NCBI GenBank assembly: GCA_021795355.1 | Contig: JAJYPL010000004.1 | Location: forward strand, 1,467-65,466 | Length of the DNA: 64,000 bases | Source: a bacterium | GTDB lineage: Bacteria; SZUA-79; Acidulodesulfobacterales; Acidulodesulfobacteraceae | Direction of reading: 5' to 3' | In this document: positions 81-32,343 of the stretch, one piece after another | How the letters are laid out: every line of letters starts with the position of its first letter | Numbering within the stretch: the first letter of the stretch is position 1 | Program-made: the position numbers and the translations under genes | The notes under the pieces: model-generated | The model's database searches: none | What the model was told of the DNA's origin: nothing | Seen by the model: the letters and a program-made list of their open reading frames with translations, nothing else

Positions 81-1064
81 ATGGAACGTACTAAAAATTA
101 TTTGAAATTTTCATTGTTCCTGCTTCTTATTTTAATCGATGCCGGAAATATTAATAATAACGCAAATGCCGCAACCGTGTCTAATTTTAAGGTCGGAAGG
201 ATGCCTTACGGACTTGCGGTAGGCAAAAAAAATAATGTTTATGCCGCTATAAGCAGTTTTAATAATGTGGTTGAACTTAACCAAAACGGTAAATTAATTA
301 AAAATATTATTGCGGACTGGGCGCCTTCAGGGATTGTTATAAATAAAACCGGCTATATTTATATATCGACAGGCATAGGAAATGTCGTAAAACTTAATAA
401 CAAAGGTCAAATTCTTAAAAAGGTAAAAGTTGGAGTTATTCCGGCAGGAATCGCCGTTGGACCCGATGGAAATATTTATGTAACGTCCATACATTCTAAG
501 ACCGTTACTAAATTAAACCCGGCGCTTAAGATTTTAAAGGTTTTTTATGCCGGTATTGCACCATACGGTATAGTTTTAAACGATAACGGTTTTATATATG
601 TTACGAACTTCGTAAACAAAGGTACCGTTACCGTATTAAACAGAAGCGGAAAAATAATAAAAGTATTCAATGCGCAAAGAAAACCGGAAGGCATTGCGAT
701 AGGTCCTTCAGGCGATATATATGTTACGAACGGGTTAAGCGGCAGCGTTTTAAAATTTGACGCAAACGGGAAAATTTTAAAAAAATTTCACGTAAAAGGA
801 GCGCCTTACGGAATTGCTCTAAGCACTACCGGAAGCATGTTCGTTGCCTGCATATATGCCGATAAAGTAGTGAAATTAAGCCGTTCGGGCAAGGTTTTAA
901 ATACCTATAAAACCGGGAAAAATCCTAATTTTATACTAATAGATAATAAAGGCAATGTGTGGACGGCAAACAGCGGAGACGGAACCGTAACTAAAATTAG
1001 CGGCGCAACCCGCGGAAAAGAGTTTTTCCCGTATAATGGGCCGATTTGGCAGGAAAGCTTTTAA
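81..1064 (+). CDS. exported beta-propeller repeat protein (NHL/YVTN-like repeats)
   Basis: Hydrophobic N-terminal signal-like segment ending ANA. Seven reiterations of a ~40-aa unit (P.GIA...G.IYVT....V.KL...GK.LK). Confidence 0.6.
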   Translation: MERTKNYLKFSLFLLLILIDAGNINNNANAATVSNFKVGRMPYGLAVGKKNNVYAAISSFNNVVELNQNGKLIKNIIADWAPSGIVINKTGYIYISTGIGNVVKLNNKGQILKKVKVGVIPAGIAVGPDGNIYVTSIHSKTVTKLNPALKILKVFYAGIAPYGIVLNDNGFIYVTNFVNKGTVTVLNRSGKIIKVFNAQRKPEGIAIGPSGDIYVTNGLSGSVLKFDANGKILKKFHVKGAPYGIALSTTGSMFVACIYADKVVKLSRSGKVLNTYKTGKNPNFILIDNKGNVWTANSGDGTVTKISGATRGKEFFPYNGPIWQESF

Positions 1065-1426: not shown

Positions 1427-2605
1427 ATGAATCCTTATTTTCTCGAATACACTATAATAGGTATTGCGGGCTTAATTTTCGGGGCAGCGCTCGAAAGAGG
1501 TAGAATGTGTTTCGTGCTTGCAACTAATAATATATTCATGGCAAAAGATACAAAAATTTTGGAAGGCATATTACTGGCATTTGGAATTTCTATTCTTGCT
1601 TTCGGCATCATAGAATCCGCAGGAATAGTTCCGATACAATCCGCAGTTCAAGGCGTGTTTCCCGCAGGATGGTATGATTTAGTCGGCTCTCTTTTGTTTG
1701 GATTCGGCATAGGGCTTTGCGGAGCATGCATGAGCGGATTAATATTCAGGGCAGGTTCCGGATTTACCCAAAACTGGATGCAATTATTCGGAATACTTGT
1801 CGGAACGATATTCTTTGCTTTCATAATATTCCCGCTGACTAATTTTCTTTACTGGATTTTACACACTATACCGTGGCTTAACTTAAAACCGGGATTTGCC
1901 GACTATATTCCTCATGAATTGTTTGGAAACGCAGTATGGGGACCGTTTGTAACGGCTCTAATTTTCGGCGGCTTGTTTCTCATATTGGGATTATATTTGA
2001 CAAAAAGGAGATTTGGAAAGATAAGCAAAGAACGCGGCGTAAACTATAAAGAACCGATAATAACTTGGGATATGCTAAAATTTAAAGAGGCTTATTCTCC
2101 GAGATTGGGCGGCATATTGTTTGCCGTGGTTGCTATTATAGTTTTTTTAGTCTCTTATTTTACCGTTCATAAAGTTACATATATGGGCGTAACAACCCCT
2201 TACGGCAGTTTCGATACTTATATTTTAGCGCCTTTTATCAATCTATATAATACGGTAGGGCATTATAAAGCATCGTTTTTGCCCAAAATATCGTCAAACT
2301 GGTTTCAGATAGTGCCGGTGGCAATTCCTATGACCTTGCTTGTTATAACTACATTTGCCGGTTCTACCACTACGGCTATTTTAGGCGGGGAATTCAAATG
2401 GAGAGTGCCGAAAAGAAAAATAATGTTTCTTCAAAATTTTATCGGCGGCATTCTTACCGGCGTCGGCGCAAGAATAGCTTTAGGCTGCAACATAGGTACT
2501 TTATGGTCGGGGTTTTTAATGTTTTCTTGGGCAGGAATGTTATTTTTGCCGACCCTTGTTTTGGGAATGTATCTTGCTCTTAAATTTCAACAGGCAATAT
2601 GGTAA
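1427..2605 (+). CDS. yeeE: YeeE/YedE-family sulfur-compound (thiosulfate) transporter
   Basis: Polytopic membrane protein with Cys-bearing motifs GRMCFV, GLCGACMSG and LGCNIGT typical of YeeE/YedE. Paired with tusA as in yeeE-yeeD loci. Confidence 0.8.
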   Translation: MNPYFLEYTIIGIAGLIFGAALERGRMCFVLATNNIFMAKDTKILEGILLAFGISILAFGIIESAGIVPIQSAVQGVFPAGWYDLVGSLLFGFGIGLCGACMSGLIFRAGSGFTQNWMQLFGILVGTIFFAFIIFPLTNFLYWILHTIPWLNLKPGFADYIPHELFGNAVWGPFVTALIFGGLFLILGLYLTKRRFGKISKERGVNYKEPIITWDMLKFKEAYSPRLGGILFAVVAIIVFLVSYFTVHKVTYMGVTTPYGSFDTYILAPFINLYNTVGHYKASFLPKISSNWFQIVPVAIPMTLLVITTFAGSTTTAILGGEFKWRVPKRKIMFLQNFIGGILTGVGARIALGCNIGTLWSGFLMFSWAGMLFLPTLVLGMYLALKFQQAIW

Positions 2606-2649: not shown

Positions 2650-2946
2650 ATGGCTGCGGCTGACAATATGAAAAAAAGAAAAAATCATAACTGGTGCGGA
2701 ATAACGTTACTGGCTTTATACGGATTATTTACTATATACGCTTCATTTTTCTTATCTTATTTAAATAAAGATAAGGTTATAGGGAAATTATCCAATGAAG
2801 CTATAGCAGGAATAAAAGAAAGTTTTATCTTGTGGGGCGTAATCATGATTATAGGCGCAATTCTTCTTTTAATAAGGGAATATGTGCTGAAATCCGGACA
2901 GGAAGAGGTTAAGGATACGGAAAGCGGGGTATCCCCTCACTATTAA
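2650..2946 (+). CDS. small membrane protein, two predicted TM helices, unknown function
   Basis: 98 aa with two hydrophobic stretches. RBS aaggagg upstream. Same strand, tightly spaced within the sulfur cluster. Confidence 0.45.
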   Translation: MAAADNMKKRKNHNWCGITLLALYGLFTIYASFFLSYLNKDKVIGKLSNEAIAGIKESFILWGVIMIIGAILLLIREYVLKSGQEEVKDTESGVSPHY

Positions 2947-2992: not shown

Positions 2993-3298
2993 ATGAAACT
3001 TGCTCTTTTAATAACGACGGATAAATATAAAGATTACGTAGAAAATATCATAAACAGCGCTAAAAAATCAGGTTATGAATTGAAATGTTTTATAATGGAC
3101 GACGGAGTAAATTTATTAAACGATACAAGTTTCGTCGGCAAATTAAAAGAAACCGGTTCGGATGTTTCGCTTTGCGAATATTCATGCGGTATCAGAAACA
3201 TACATGAAAAGATAGAAGGTTTTCTGTATGCTTCCCAGTACGAAAACGCAAGCATAATAAACTCGCTGACAAACGAAGACAGGTTTCTGGTTTTTTAA
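2993..3298 (+). CDS. small DsrE-family protein (DsrE-like paralog)
   Basis: 101 aa. The pattern MKLALLI...G.ELKCFIMDDGVNLL...SLCEYSCGIRNI...DRFLVF parallels DsrE (FFY.DGV, VCVAA..RRGI, DRLVVF). Confidence 0.5.
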   Translation: MKLALLITTDKYKDYVENIINSAKKSGYELKCFIMDDGVNLLNDTSFVGKLKETGSDVSLCEYSCGIRNIHEKIEGFLYASQYENASIINSLTNEDRFLVF

Positions 3299-3310
3299 GA
3301 CGGGGGAAAA

Positions 3311-3583
3311 ATGACTAAAAAGATTGCGGTATTTACGCGCGACAGACAGGCCGAGGCGCTTAGAATGTCCGGAGGACTTACGCTCCTCGACGATAAAGTA
3401 GAAGTATATGTTCTTGATAGAAAACTTGAAGATAATAAGGTTATAAACAAGCATCTCGATATGGTTCAAAATATGCTTGAACTTCCGGTATTAACGAATT
3501 TCAGGGATAACCGGTTCGAATATATATCGAACGAAGAACTGGCGGATAAAATGCTCGAATATGACATAGTTATACCATATTAA
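3311..3583 (+). CDS. small DsrF-like protein (no cysteine)
   Basis: 90 aa, starts 13 nt after the preceding gene. KKIAVFTR...AEALRMSGGL..DDKVEVYVLD resembles the DsrF/TusC N-terminal half. Weak similarity only. Confidence 0.35.
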   Translation: MTKKIAVFTRDRQAEALRMSGGLTLLDDKVEVYVLDRKLEDNKVINKHLDMVQNMLELPVLTNFRDNRFEYISNEELADKMLEYDIVIPY

Positions 3584-3612
3584 TATTAATTACTTATTGC
3601 GGAGAATAAAAT

Positions 3613-3783
3613 ATGAAAATACTTCATGTTTTAAAAAGAGAGCCGTCAAAAACGGAAACTGAAATTATGGAATTGCATTCCAAATCTTACGATACGAAAA
3701 TTATCAGGCTTTATGAGCCAGGAGTAAACTATGACAGTTTTATAACGGACGTATTTAAATACGACAAAATATTTTGCTGGTAA
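3613..3783 (+). CDS. 56-aa ORF, DsrH/TusB-like mini-protein (absent from the supplied track, under 60 aa)
   Basis: ATG at 3613 preceded by ggaga (3601-3605); stop TAA at 3781-3783. Translation MKILHVLKREPSKTETEIMELHSKSYDTKIIRLYEPGVNYDSFITDVFKYDKIFCW. The N-terminus (ILHvlK..P) and the C-terminal W resemble DsrH/TusB. Confidence 0.35.
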   Translation: MKILHVLKREPSKTETEIMELHSKSYDTKIIRLYEPGVNYDSFITDVFKYDKIFCW

Positions 3784-3853: not shown

Positions 3854-4378
3854 ATGAAAAAGTTTATTATCGTAAGCTTAAGCGTAATGTTAATGCTTTC
3901 ATCTGCGGCAGTTTCTTATGCGGGAAATTTTAATCAAATGCTGGCAAAAAAAGCTTATCAGGCATTAAACCCGCGCCATGTGGGCTCAAAACCTAATGCG
4001 GTAGGGGTAGTCGGCGTTCCTCAAATTATGGCGCCGGTGCTTTATAAAGAGTATATTGTAGAACATAACGCGAAACACTATTTTCTTTTAGACGTCAGAG
4101 AACATGCCGCATTCGTGAAAATGGGGCACATAGCGGGCGCGCATAACATACCTCTGCAGGTTCTTTTCACGCCTAAGTATTTAAAAATGCTTCCAAAACA
4201 TAGGACGATTATAAGCATTTGCTACGTGGGACAGTGGGAGTCCATGGCCGCGGCATTATTAAAGACGATGGGCTATAATGTGAAAATATTAAGATTCGGT
4301 ATGTCGTCTTGGAATCCAAAAATAGATTTGCTTCATAGAAATAAAATAGCATTTGGAAACTTTCCGCTTGTACATTAA
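3854..4378 (+). CDS. exported rhodanese-domain sulfurtransferase
   Basis: Signal peptide (MLMLSSAAVSYA). Rhodanese core FLLDVRE...GHIAGAHNIP and a catalytic-loop cysteine in ICYVGQWES. Confidence 0.75.
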   Translation: MKKFIIVSLSVMLMLSSAAVSYAGNFNQMLAKKAYQALNPRHVGSKPNAVGVVGVPQIMAPVLYKEYIVEHNAKHYFLLDVREHAAFVKMGHIAGAHNIPLQVLFTPKYLKMLPKHRTIISICYVGQWESMAAALLKTMGYNVKILRFGMSSWNPKIDLLHRNKIAFGNFPLVH

Positions 4379-4430: not shown

Positions 4431-4646
4431 GTGAAAAAAATTAACAACATTATATTTACCGCCGTGTTAGCTCTGCTGTTTGCATTTGGGATCGGCGCGG
4501 CTTCAGGCTCAAGCGCATATGCTTTTCAAGGCAGCCATTTTATGAAACATTCCGCTTTGACTAAAAAAACTTCAAAAAAAACAAAAAAAGGCAGCGGGAG
4601 CAAGTCAAAAAAAGCTTTAAATAAAATGGGGGCGGGCTGTTTATAA
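4431..4646 (+). CDS. small exported lysine-rich protein ending in GAGCL
   Basis: GTG start with aaggagg RBS. Signal peptide ending AYA. The ~40-aa mature part is very basic, with a single Cys at the penultimate position. Confidence 0.5.
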   Translation: MKKINNIIFTAVLALLFAFGIGAASGSSAYAFQGSHFMKHSALTKKTSKKTKKGSGSKSKKALNKMGAGCL

Positions 4647-4679
4647 TATAATAAAAGTATAATGCAAAAAATTAGCATA

Positions 4680-4710
4680 GAAGGGTGAGAAAATTCACCC
4701 TTCTTTTTTT
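4680..4710 (+). terminator. rho-independent terminator
   Basis: gaagggtga / tcacccttc 9-bp stem with a 6-nt loop, followed by a run of 7 T. Confidence 0.7.
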
Positions 4711-4773
4711 ATTCGGGATATGTAATATAACATAAAATTTATTTTTCATATAAAATAAAAGGAGAAATAATAT

Positions 4774-5301
4774 ATGCGATATTTTACAACGGCAGTTTTA
4801 ATATTTATTACAATTGTTTTTACCGTCGCAGCTTTCGGTATTCCGTCCCATGCTTCTACTTTATCCGCTAAAAAAAGCGCCGCTAAAATTGCGATGATAA
4901 GGAAATATTTCTTATCCCATTCTTTCGATTTCGGTCCGATTTTTTATAAATATCACCCTGGTCCTAATTGGTATCTTCAGCATATTAAAAGCTTGAGGCT
5001 TACCTCAAGCCAGTTAGCAATAATAAAAAAGTTAGATGCCGGAATGATAAAAGATACCGTCATAGGAATAAAGAATCTAAAGATTGCATATTCCAAGTAC
5101 AAAAAAGATTCGATGGAAACTGCTCCAAAAATAAAAACCGTTATAAACGATATAAAAAATATTGGCAAGGCGCAAACTTACCTTGCTTACGAGATGATCC
5201 CGTATCACCTTAAAAGTTATGCCGTATTAACGCCTGCACAGAAAAAAATATTTCAAGATTTAAGAATGACTAAACTAAATGCCGGATGTTTGGCAAAGTG
5301 A
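4774..5301 (+). CDS. exported LTXXQ-motif (CpxP/Spy/ZraP-like) protein ending in AGCLAK
   Basis: Signal peptide ending SHA. Two LTxxQ motifs (LTSSQL, LTPAQK). A single Cys in the C-terminal NAGCLAK. Confidence 0.55.
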   Translation: MRYFTTAVLIFITIVFTVAAFGIPSHASTLSAKKSAAKIAMIRKYFLSHSFDFGPIFYKYHPGPNWYLQHIKSLRLTSSQLAIIKKLDAGMIKDTVIGIKNLKIAYSKYKKDSMETAPKIKTVINDIKNIGKAQTYLAYEMIPYHLKSYAVLTPAQKKIFQDLRMTKLNAGCLAK

Positions 5302-28237: not shown

Positions 28238-28579
28238 ATGGCAAGTTTTGTTTATAACGGAAAAACGATAGAAACGGATGACGAAGGTTACCTTCAGAAT
28301 CTTGGAGACTGGGATAAAGGTCTTGCTGAAGTTCTTGCGAAGCAGGAAAATGTCGAATTAACCGAAAAGCACTGGAAATTAATTGAATGGATCAGGGATT
28401 ATTTCCAGAAATTTCAGGTTGCGCCGGCAATTAAATCGCTGACGAAAGAGGTCATGTCGCTTGAAAATTTACCTGATAAAAAAGAAGCTAATAAATTCAT
28501 TTATGAATTATTTCCGGAAGGTCCCGCAAAACAGCTTGCAAAAATCTCCGGTCTTCCTAAACCGACAGGCTGCGTTTAA
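28238..28579 (+). CDS. dsrC: DsrC/TusE-family protein with a single (penultimate) cysteine
   Basis: The C-terminus KISGLPKPTGCV matches the DsrC swinging arm. The position of the second conserved Cys, 11 residues upstream, is Ala. Confidence 0.85.
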   Translation: MASFVYNGKTIETDDEGYLQNLGDWDKGLAEVLAKQENVELTEKHWKLIEWIRDYFQKFQVAPAIKSLTKEVMSLENLPDKKEANKFIYELFPEGPAKQLAKISGLPKPTGCV

Positions 28580-31193: not shown

Positions 31194-31227
31194 TAAATAA
31201 TAAATTAAATTATTAATGGAGGAACTA

Positions 31228-31578
31228 ATGAAATTAGGCATTCTTATTAAAGAAGGCCCTTATATGCATCAGGCTATGGACACGGCCTATAATTTTATAT
31301 TAGCGGCTATGGAAAGCGGACATGAAATAACGGGCATATTTTTTTATAACGACGGAGTTTATAACAGATGTGCAACGCTTGAACCTCCAAGAGACGAAAG
31401 GAATATCATGAAACTCCTTACGGAATTAGAATTGAAAGGAGTCAGATTAATAGTCTGCGTTGCGGCTGGGAAAAGAAGAGGCATAGTAAATCAGACGGTA
31501 TGCAAAGTGGAAGAAATATCGGGACTTGGACAACTGCTCGAACTCTGCATAACATCCGACAGAACTATAACTTTTTAA
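31228..31578 (+). CDS. dsrE: DsrE sulfurtransferase subunit
   Basis: EGPYMHQAMDTAYNF, FFYNDGV, VCVAAGKRRGI and ISGLGQL align closely with Allochromatium DsrE. Start at the ATG 5 nt after GGAGG. Confidence 0.9.
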   Translation: MKLGILIKEGPYMHQAMDTAYNFILAAMESGHEITGIFFYNDGVYNRCATLEPPRDERNIMKLLTELELKGVRLIVCVAAGKRRGIVNQTVCKVEEISGLGQLLELCITSDRTITF

Positions 31579-31616
31579 TAAAATATAATAAAAATACTGA
31601 ATAAAGGAGCCATAAG

Positions 31617-31991
31617 ATGTCTGAACAAGAAAAAACTAAAGTTATGTTTGTATGCAGAACCGCTCCGTACGGAACCATATACGAACAGGAAGCTATAGAA
31701 GCTATGGTTATGTTCGGCGCATACGAACAGGATATCAGCGTAACATTTACGGGAGACGGAGTATTTTCGCTGAAAAAAGGACAGGATACTTCATTGCTGG
31801 GAAAGAAAAATTTTTCCATGACCTATCCTATATTAATAGACGACTTTGAAATTTCGCATATATACGTCGAAAAAGAGTCTCTCGAAGAAAGAGGTTTGAC
31901 GGAAGACGATTTAGCGACGGAAGTAGAAATAATAGATAGAAATTCTTTAAAACAAAAGATGGGAGAAATGAAAGCTTTACTTCCGTTTTAA
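31617..31991 (+). CDS. dsrF: DsrF
   Basis: APYGTIYEQEAIE, GDGVFSL.KGQDT, KNFS.TY and LEERGLTEDDL match DsrF/TusC. Confidence 0.9.
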   Translation: MSEQEKTKVMFVCRTAPYGTIYEQEAIEAMVMFGAYEQDISVTFTGDGVFSLKKGQDTSLLGKKNFSMTYPILIDDFEISHIYVEKESLEERGLTEDDLATEVEIIDRNSLKQKMGEMKALLPF

Positions 31992-32043
31992 ATAATAAAA
32001 ACCTAAATTTATTAAAGATTAATAATTAAGGAGGAAATTAAAA

Positions 32044-32343
32044 GTGCTGCACATAGTAAAAAAATCTCCATATGAATCTTCCGCATTCAGCGACGCAATA
32101 AACTATATGGAACAAAACGATATAATGCTTTTAACCGAAGACGGCATATATGCCGCAAAAAAGGGCGGAAAATTTGAAGGAGCGTTAAAAAGCCTTATGC
32201 AAAAAAATGCCGTTTTCTGTCTTATAGCCGACGTAAAAGCAAGAGGCATTCAGGAAAGCGAAATAATAGAAAACGTAAAAGTAATAGACTATAAAGGCTT
32301 TGTAGAAAAAGTAGTTGAACATAATCCTATGACGTGGTCGTAA
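32044..32343 (+). CDS. dsrH: DsrH
   Basis: GTG start. LHIVKKSPYES, EDGIYAA, DVKARGI and IDYKGFV match DsrH/TusB. Confidence 0.85.
   Translation: MLHIVKKSPYESSAFSDAINYMEQNDIMLLTEDGIYAAKKGGKFEGALKSLMQKNAVFCLIADVKARGIQESEIIENVKVIDYKGFVEKVVEHNPMTWS

Follow-up and report, generated by a model that had tools for sequence, protein, structure and literature searches.

Introduction

The periplasmic protein SoxY, one half of SoxYZ, is a covalent carrier of sulfur between enzymes and holds its cargo on a single cysteine in a small-residue motif of a flexible C-terminal tail. DsrC and TusE, which accept sulfur from DsrEFH or TusBCD, have an arm that ends …PTGCV-COOH. The exported single-domain rhodaneses Sud (Wolinella) and PspE (E. 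coli) have one catalytic cysteine and are thought to move periplasmic sulfane sulfur; we know of no dedicated protein or peptide acceptor for them, nor of a Cys arm described on either enzyme. Here we analyse a stretch of 64,000 nucleotides (the window; positions 1,467 to 65,466 of contig JAJYPL010000004.1, assembly GCA_021795355.1) from a bacterium of the Acidulodesulfobacteraceae, homologs of whose proteins are named Candidatus Acidulodesulfobacterium and Acididesulfobacter and come from metagenome-assembled genomes (MAGs) of acid mine drainage. In the window a short motif around a lone cysteine closes both a Lys-rich peptide and a protein resembling Spy, CpxP and CnrX, and in sister lineages it also occurs on the rhodanese encoded beside them. 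Judged from the sequences, this Cys motif is a portable module on three unrelated, predicted exported proteins of one gene cluster. The features concerned are listed here.

3854-4378, forward strand: predicted exported single-domain rhodanese (PF00581, 5.4e-14, 52.9 bits against a cut-off of 22.2)
4431-4646, forward strand: peptide precursor, 71 residues; signal peptide 4431-4523, mature 40-mer 4524-4643, predicted to be disordered
4617-4643, forward strand: Cys arm of the peptide, L63-N-K-M-G-A-G-C70-L71-COOH, marked out by conservation of the tail
4679-4714, forward strand: intrinsic terminator; hairpin 4679-4704 (11-bp stem with 5 GC pairs), then the T-run TTTTTTTATT
4774-5301, forward strand: Spy/CpxP/CnrX-like protein, 175 residues, with HPGPxW and MIPYH motifs and two LTxxQ motifs
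5272-5298, forward strand: Cys arm of the Spy-like protein, K167-L-N-A-G-C172-L-A-K175-COOH, present in all close orthologs

Comparison with known carriers

By analogy, the system would work most like the swinging arms of SoxY and DsrC/TusE combined with the periplasmic rhodaneses, and it belongs to none of the carrier families. In SoxY the body is folded and Ig-like, with a SoxZ partner, the motif GGCGG and the enzymes SoxXA and SoxB, whereas the peptide is predicted to be disordered, with no folded body, MGAGCL or NAGCL stands in place of GGCGG, and the partner would be a rhodanese. Neither Pfam nor NCBIfam gave a match to a Sox family, and no soxZ-like gene is adjacent. The likeness to DsrC and TusE lies in the Gly that precedes a penultimate Cys and in the one aliphatic residue that follows, such that G-C-L-COOH of the peptide mirrors G-C-V-COOH; in the Spy-like protein the cysteine is fourth from the end (A-G-C-L-A-K). 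DsrC, however, is cytoplasmic and belongs to PF04358, whereas the proteins considered here have predicted signal peptides and PF04358 is absent from both the peptide and the 175-residue protein. A true DsrC that has this arm is encoded in the dsr operon of the same window (28238-28579, forward strand; PF04358, 4.5e-39).

The rhodanese resembles Sud and PspE, and PspE models match it weakly; it differs in that its loop, CYVGQWE, is without the usual basic residues. Metal binders of the SilE/PcoE type are, like the peptide, small, exported and disordered with Met/His segments, but they occur in metal-resistance operons and have neither a conserved terminal Cys nor a Lys-rich stalk.

The two cysteine tails

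The peptide gene begins with GTG behind a strong ribosome-binding site (AGGAGG). It encodes the predicted signal peptide MKKINNIIFTAVLALLFAFGIGAASGSSAYA followed by FQGSHFMKHSALTKKTSKKTKKGSGSKSKKALNKMGAGCL, and ends …KKALNKMGAGCL, with Cys70 (4638-4640) the sole cysteine of the precursor. The Spy-like protein ends …RMTKLNAGCLAK (…QDLRMTKLNAGCLAK), and Cys172 (5287-5289) is likewise the only cysteine of the entire precursor. The signal peptide of the first can be read as MKK, a hydrophobic core and AYA/FQ, where the slash marks the predicted cleavage, that of the second as ending in SHA/ST and that of the rhodanese as …VSYA/GN; n, h and c regions and AxA-type sites (AYA/F, SHA/S, SYA/G) are visible and conserved in the three precursors. 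The mature peptide has 11 Lys among its 40 residues and no acidic residue, a composition that could hinder its export. The AlphaFold2 (AF2) model of the peptide is confident for the signal-peptide helix only, and the mature part is predicted to be disordered.

A sequence-only reading of the window had claimed that two proteins of exported type have a common Cys tail, that the cysteine is the only one in each mature protein and that the DNA of the motif is not a repeat. All of this holds: the tails are LNKMGAGCL in the 71-residue precursor and KLNAGCLAK in the 175-residue one, both with predicted signal peptides, and the lone cysteine extends to the whole precursors. The lysine of the proposed motif K-(M/L)-x-A-G-C-L proved not to be invariant, since K, N or E is found in its place. 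The tail codons differ between the two genes (GCG GGC TGT TTA in the peptide, GCC GGA TGT TTG in the 175-residue protein) and the likeness is therefore at the level of the protein. Within one genome the codons of the rhodanese arm, described below, are also unlike those of the peptide tail, and a DNA repeat or recent duplication is ruled out by these differences.

Four of the 2080 pairs that can be formed from the 65 genes of the window have a common 4-mer in their last 12 residues, and a Cys-containing 3-mer in that segment is common to the peptide and the Spy-like protein only. Our hunt for further bearers of the motif covered about 350 kb of related low-GC loci. Within it, G-C-[LMIV] in the last eight residues is confined to the peptide, the 175-residue protein and DsrC, apart from a 59-residue open reading frame (ORF) of locus L016 (61-240, ending …GNGCLRGIES) that we judged to be spurious. 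Pure chance is ruled out as the source of the likeness by these background counts together with the conservation of the tails. A CaaX box as the meaning of C-L-A-K is also ruled out: the peptide ends in C-L, some orthologs of the Spy-like protein end in C-L-G-K, and the host is bacterial.

The peptide matches no family in Pfam or NCBIfam, and sub-threshold matches to LapA_dom, CzcI and a JUQZ bacteriocin were judged to be noise from the signal peptide or helices. Its relatives amount to some 45 sequence variants, down to 34% identity, all annotated 'hypothetical protein', and every full-length one ends in [LK]-[NKS]-[KNE]-M-G-A-G-C-L-COOH. In 21 aligned variants (41-92% identity to the window peptide) the L, M, G, A, G, C and L of the tail are invariant, and what remains is a signal peptide, a variable Met-, His-, Ser- and Gly-rich spacer and a stalk with much Lys and Ser. 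The codons for Gly, Ala, Gly, Cys and Leu of the tail vary synonymously across 11 loci, with not one amino-acid change. The peptide of L016 was missed by a tblastn search with the window peptide and its body cannot be aligned with it, yet it ends SKLNKMGAGCL, with an identical tail. These comparisons indicate purifying selection on the peptide that is strong at the protein level and confined to the tail. In all close orthologs of the 175-residue protein the corresponding sequence is R-M-[TA]-K-L-N-A-G-C-[LM]-[AG]-K-COOH. Loss of the motif in orthologs would have counted against the sequence-only reading; instead MGAGCL and NAGC[LM] are both kept, through codon changes in the tail that are synonymous only.

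Two further observations concern the peptide gene. It contains four runs of seven or eight A (window 4563-4613), and the database variants P0012 and P0016 (+1) and P0013 (-1), in which the Cys tail is lost, are the expected products of single-A insertions or deletions; they could reflect homopolymer sequencing error or slipped-strand on/off switching. The only Rfam match, to L20_leader at 4606-4716 (25.5 bits against a gathering score of 58.7), which covers the end of the gene and the terminator hairpin, was judged to be due to chance.

The rhodanese and its Cys inserts

Cys123 (4220-4222) is the only cysteine of the rhodanese. It opens the active-site loop CYVGQWE, which is invariant in seven orthologs, and aligns with the catalytic cysteine of PDB entry 3GK5. 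In sister lineages the rhodanese has an insert directly after the signal peptide, and this insert carries the motif, adding a second cysteine. The enzymes of L016 and L044 read SYA/QGMMKGHKNAGC[IL]GT, with the motif KNAGC[LI]G in the flavour of the 175-residue protein, and P0161 and P0168 (of L046 and L047) read SYA/HEMMNKG[HA]MGAGCLGT, in the flavour of the peptide. Loci with an arm-bearing rhodanese still encode a separate peptide downstream. The fusion argues that the motif works with this enzyme.

Gene order links the same two proteins. The peptide gene directly follows that of the exported rhodanese, as last gene of the same operon, in at least nine distinct lineages, and across the window, L014-L018 and L040-L047 the identity of the peptide drops to about 40%. 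The terminator stands 3' of the peptide gene, so that the peptide closes the transcription unit of the rhodanese and the 175-residue protein, which comes next in most lineages, is transcribed separately; at other loci hairpins of unlike sequence occupy this position. The full cluster, ending with rhodanese, peptide and 175-residue protein, is found in five GTDB species representatives of two genera (L014-L018). In the L040-L047 clade it ends with rhodanese and peptide, followed by a malate/lactate dehydrogenase gene. At L012:5838-5930 and L013:741-815, a 30-residue remnant of a type II DsrH (…KHDKIFAW) stands before a copy of the peptide gene on its own, with hypothetical proteins around; the stand-alone gene seems to have been copied along with a piece of the operon.

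Scanning metagenomes with the rhodanese alignment gave only distant rhodaneses (at most 43% identity) in unrelated contexts, none with a downstream Cys-tail peptide. One contig of high GC content (L060:2195-2872) encodes an unrelated exported lipoprotein rhodanese with the loop CYKGQT, a Pro/Ala/Glu linker and the C-terminus …SDDGGGGCG-COOH, an arm like that of SoxY, which suggests that an exported rhodanese with a Cys arm is a recurring design. Eight other loci (L058, L059, L063, L064, L067, L070, L072 and L073) encode proteins of about 365 residues with an N-terminal rhodanese domain, a conserved C-terminus …GPNRCAI[AG] and no visible signal peptide, a further case of a rhodanese whose cysteine is close to the end.

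The Spy-like protein and its family

The sequence-only reading had placed the 175-residue protein in the LTXXQ group. The Pfam match is sub-threshold (PF07813, 17.9 bits against a gathering cut-off of 24.3, E 0.0052, with the C-terminal motif alone matched), as is that to the NCBIfam Spy model (15 bits against 174); the label is backed instead by the predicted fold. An AF2 model is helical with a pLDDT of 70.9. When it was compared with the PDB using Foldseek, CnrX, NccX, STV, CpxP, Spy and ZraP were matched with a probability of 0.96-1.00 and a target-normalised TM score of 0.6-0.79, yet with E values of 0.17-1.4 and from a model of that pLDDT. A profile of the family matched the PDB sequences of STV, CpxP and Spy at E 0.001-0.03. 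The two LTxxQ motifs that mark the helices of the hooked hairpin in this group are present as L76-T-S-S-Q80 and L152-T-P-A-Q156, and all of 29 family members have Q80 and L152. A sub-threshold match to CjCas9_PI_CTD was judged to be noise from the signal peptide or helices. The protein resembles CpxP, Spy, ZraP and CnrX in its predicted signal peptide, its all-helical model and its two LTxxQ motifs, but falls below the Pfam threshold and differs in an additional N-terminal segment (HS.F..F..HPGPxW), in MIPYH, in the Cys tail and in its neighbourhood of sulfur genes.

The family is small and not in Pfam, with 91 representatives among 1.84 billion. The segment HS.F..F..HPGPxW, MIPYH and the two LTxxQ motifs are family-wide, and His49, His61, Met141 and His145 are conserved. 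Outside the Acidulodesulfobacteriota most members lack the Cys tail, and C-terminal extensions are instead Met/His-rich (P0031, P0034 and P0027; for example MKMRHKMMMMRRMMKMLHEKMMM…) or form a domain with four EF-hands (P0019). The first two of these tail cassettes are encoded at L039:6001-6576 (P0031) and L036:6001-6630 (P0034). P0031 has a single cysteine near the mature N-terminus (DAKMLNACAMNK), in an LNAC stretch, and P0058 similarly has one cysteine in an N-terminal LNAC / SNAC stretch.

Members of the family are repeatedly encoded near genes of sulfur metabolism. In L039, from a more distant organism, genes for YeeE, TusA, a second TusA, DsrEFH-like proteins and an exported tandem rhodanese are followed by that for P0031. 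A Cys-less relative comes directly after a tetrathionate hydrolase in L022 (E 6e-162 to 6L8A); SoxB is a close neighbour in L023 and L024, where it scores above the TIGR04486 cut-off, and L021 and L029 have SoxA/TsdA-like cytochromes nearby. DsrE-like and DUF202 genes are close to the relatives in L005, L021 and L023, and YgaP-like membrane proteins also occur in the vicinity. The neighbour genes in question, at L022:6327-7934, L023:9075-10778, L024:5650-7398 and L021:7441-7869, are from MAGs of beta- and gammaproteobacterial acidophiles. A neighbourhood of the two-component or sigma-factor kind was met at one locus only, L028, where a two-component system lies beside the gene. In acidophiles the body of the Spy-like family is tied repeatedly to the metabolism of sulfur compounds outside the cytoplasm; the Cys tail has been added in a lineage-specific way. 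The HPGPxW/MIPYH family looks like an unrecognised accessory protein of sulfur oxidation.

The gene cluster

The rhodanese and peptide genes follow a series of genes on the same strand.

81-1064, forward strand: predicted exported NHL-repeat beta-propeller, first gene of the cluster (Pfam NHL/Vgb_lyase/SGL), with a visible signal peptide; syntenic in L014-L018, L040, L043 and L046
1108-1368, forward strand: TusA-family sulfurtransferase, the 'T' of YTD (PF01206, 2.3e-17, 63 bits), with the CP motif GETCPIP
1427-2605, forward strand: YeeE/YedE-family membrane sulfur transporter, the 'Y' of YTD (PF04143, 2.4e-49); NCBIfam TsuA/YedE matches fall below their cut-offs
2650-2946, forward strand: membrane protein of 98 residues with two helices, in a conserved position; no Pfam or NCBIfam match
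2993-3783, forward strand: DsrE-like protein (2993-3298) and two small proteins (3311-3583 and 3613-3783), read as a type II DsrEFH set

YeeE, TusA and the DsrE-like protein (PF02635, 25.3 bits) are all above threshold and adjacent, and the two ORFs that follow, of 90 and 56 residues, have the order and sizes known from the published YTD cluster (PMC9751629, PMC13293266, PMC13047784); on these grounds we read them as putative type II DsrF and DsrH. The cluster of the window is the published YTD or yeeE-tusA-dsrEFH type II sulfur-trafficking cluster, with TusA, YeeE, DsrE-like and two small conserved proteins in the same order. It differs in that the published descriptions do not include the NHL propeller, the small membrane protein, the exported rhodanese, the Cys-tail peptide and the Spy-like protein. 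The 98-residue membrane protein lies between yeeE and the type II dsrE in all Acidulodesulfobacteriota clusters examined, and one cysteine starts its first helix (NHNWCGITLL).

The YTD genes have been re-interpreted as yeeE-tusA-dsrEFH type II, and sulfur was passed from TusA to DsrE and on to DsrC in vitro (PMC13293266). In other bacteria, YTD genes and periplasmic rhodaneses are expressed together (PMC13047784, PMC9751629). Concerning the transporter, Li et al. (2024) state that sulfur reaches the YeeE-type SoxT proteins "by unknown means", perhaps from the cysteine of SoxY, which is proposed as their donor (PMC11582611).

Besides this cluster the window holds dsrABDLCMK, a type I dsrEFH, sat, aprBA and qmoABC. 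Both DsrEFH sets are therefore present within 64 kb, type II at 2993-3783 and type I at 31216-32343 (PF02635 twice and PF04077), the latter inside dsrABDLCMK-EFH and followed by sat, aprBA, qmoABC-like genes and an H+-pyrophosphatase. The DsrC of this operon keeps the penultimate CysA (…PKPTGCV) but has Ala at the position of CysB (…GPAKQLAKISG… against …GPAKQACRFAG… in A. vinosum). CysB is needed for the trisulfide and heterodisulfide cycle of DsrC, so that either a second dsrC exists elsewhere or this one acts like TusE. At L017:8613-9052 and L018:6971-7414, just 3' of the gene for the 175-residue protein, we found a second copy of TusA (75-79% identical) and a C-terminal rhodanese fragment, which look like what is left of a cluster that was partly duplicated or rearranged.

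A proposed sulfur-carrying thiol arm

We put at about evens the proposal that the motif, in the form [LK]-N-x-M-G-A-G-C-L or K-L-N-A-G-C-L, is a short modular thiol arm, exchanging sulfane sulfur with the exported rhodanese and possibly feeding YeeE. In the acidic periplasm, Cys123 of the rhodanese would draw such sulfur from thiosulfate, polysulfide or polythionate and hand it to the arm cysteine of the 40-residue peptide, which would act as an arm without a body, in effect a genetically encoded, diffusible small thiol. The enzyme might also pass sulfur to the Spy-like protein, a second holder of the arm. Loaded arms would keep the sulfur as persulfide or thiosulfonate for a downstream acceptor, the most plausible of which is the periplasmic mouth of YeeE. 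The Lys-rich stalk may help the peptide to stay in solution at low pH, draw in anionic sulfur species and reduce the pKa of the thiol. Export, the persulfide chemistry, this role of charge, pKa and anion attraction, and the delivery to YeeE are steps that we infer. In its fullest version, in which a free-standing, disordered, Lys-rich peptide arm shuttles sulfane sulfur from rhodanese to YeeE at acid pH and the same module on the Spy-like protein and the rhodanese makes up a modular system of short linear motifs, the proposal is a tentative one that we think somewhat improbable as a whole.

That the two tailed proteins are periplasmic sulfur carriers, or substrates of the adjacent exported rhodanese, was suggested in the sequence-only reading, and the suggestion stands in part. 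It is favoured by the rhodanese-peptide-terminator operon, by the motif fused to the rhodanese and by selection on the tail only; by the published YTD context, the gene order in L039 and the Cys-less Spy-like relatives beside sulfur genes such as those for tetrathionate hydrolase and SoxB; and by the DsrC-like end G-C-L-COOH, the arm of L060 and the predicted disorder of the mature peptide.

Several points weigh on the other side. The proposal of a sulfur-carrying arm is drawn from sequence and gene context. Six invariant residues (MGAGCL) exceed what a flexible arm needs and imply a specific partner, which may be other than the rhodanese. A thiol is a poor nucleophile at the periplasmic pH of acid mine drainage. 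The insert of the L045 rhodanese is without a cysteine. The Spy-like family is mostly Cys-less and its predicted fold is CnrX-like, its nearest outgroups have tails rich in Met and His, a feature typical of Cu(I) binding and not of sulfur carriage, and the arm itself is flanked by Met and His, both in the spacer of the peptide and in the insert of the rhodanese. Several loci also depart from the common order: the gene for the 175-residue protein is absent from the L040-L047 clusters, L004 has the peptide and the 175-residue protein with no rhodanese nearby, L001-L003 have the latter on its own, and in L006-L013 copies of the peptide lie beside restriction or mobile genes. In view of these exceptions, the tightest link is therefore that between rhodanese and peptide, and the one between peptide and 175-residue protein is looser.

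Alternative explanations

The Met and His residues and the predicted fold of the Spy-like protein lead to the first alternative, that the cysteine is a ligand for soft metals. With nearby Met and His it would bind Cu(I), Hg(II), As(III) or Cd(II), and the peptide and the Spy-like protein would buffer, sense or chaperone periplasmic metals; with the same motif on both, the two proteins could exchange the ligand in the manner of Atx1-type chaperones and their targets. The top structural matches include the metal sensors CnrX and NccX as well as ZraP, and one source labels an ortholog 'Periplasmic heavy metal sensor'. The His and Met residues conserved in the family are potential support, as are the Met/His-rich tails of P0031, P0034 and P0027 and the EF-hand domain of P0019 among the nearest Cys-less relatives. 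The spacer of the peptide is itself rich in Met and His (HFMKH, MSSTMSMKH, NMHM), with an invariant Met four residues before the Cys, and the Sulfuriferula homolog of the family (L027) lies near a Cu-ATPase, a multicopper oxidase and Met-rich proteins. However, no metal-resistance gene was found in or beside any Acidulodesulfobacteriota locus examined, the peptide is part of a sulfur-trafficking operon, the motif has been grafted onto a rhodanese and not onto a metal protein, the contexts of the wider family are mostly sulfur genes, and a lone cysteine makes a weak site. We regard a metal-binding role as unlikely.

The synteny and the fusion that argue for a sulfur-carrying arm would equally suit a resolving or redox thiol. 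Here the arm would reduce the persulfide of the rhodanese, releasing H2S with formation of a disulfide between two arms or between arm and enzyme, in a reaction of the thiosulfate reductase type and the first step of disproportionation; alternatively, regulatory or tethering disulfides would form among peptide, Spy-like protein and rhodanese. Three proteins with one free cysteine each in the same motif could pair in this way, the second cysteine present in cis on some rhodaneses resembles a resolving cysteine, and thiosulfate disproportionation goes along with higher expression of both YTD genes and periplasmic rhodaneses (PMC9751629, PMC13047784). On the other hand, the cluster has no periplasmic disulfide reductase or Dsb-type gene for recycling, a reductant consumed stoichiometrically would call for re-reduction across the membrane, and the Lys-rich stalk is left unexplained. 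We judge this explanation to be improbable to the same degree as that of a metal ligand.

The invariance of six residues could also suggest recognition by an enzyme, and the tail might then be a tag by which an enzyme encoded elsewhere recognises the protein for lipidation, processing at the C-terminus, sorting or covalent attachment, with the cysteine as the site of modification. A-G-C is the core of a lipobox, [GN]-A-G-C resembles L-[AS]-[GA]-C, and the motif is found at the C-terminus as well as near the N-terminus (in the rhodanese insert and in the LNAC stretch of P0031). A lipobox, however, must end an N-terminal signal peptide, and the tails fail as lipoboxes when examined in this respect: their A-G-C lies at the C-terminus, about 39-40 and 145 residues past the predicted cleavage sites, and the cysteine of the rhodanese insert lies some ten residues past its own. 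None of the contexts examined has a conserved candidate for a modifying enzyme near these genes, and to our knowledge there is no comparable system of C-terminal lipidation or tagging. We consider a tag to be very unlikely.

A cationic antimicrobial or bacteriocin-like secreted peptide, whose tail resembles that of the Spy-like protein without a common function, would fit the small size, the predicted Sec-type export, the strong positive charge and the disorder of the peptide, its weak match to a bacteriocin family of NCBIfam (E 0.026, 14.8 bits against a cut-off of 40) and the copies near mobile and restriction genes, but it can be given hardly any credence, as immunity, export and modification genes are absent, the peptide is fixed as last gene of a sulfur operon in different lineages and the motif recurs on two other protein families.

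Significance

Thiol-bearing envelope proteins have been postulated to activate elemental sulfur in acidophiles and have never been identified (reviewed in PMC6335251), and the authors who defined type II DsrEFH regard the uptake system as the probable seat of substrate specificity (PMC13293266). Good candidates for extracytoplasmic sulfur carriers are the peptide, the Spy-like protein and, in sister lineages, the rhodanese. The unexpected element is a portable six-residue Cys module common to a 40-mer peptide, a Spy-like protein and a rhodanese. The locus offers small candidates that can be synthesised, namely the 40-mer, a rhodanese of 174 residues and natural fusions of rhodanese and arm, and it opens the question of how sulfur is handed on to simple work in vitro.

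Were the metal-binding explanation true instead, the locus would still provide an unannotated Cys/Met motif and a new Spy/CnrX-like family tied to the sulfur-oxidation loci of acidophiles. If the sulfur-carrying arm is real, the modular system would put a name to the long-postulated thiol carriers of these organisms.

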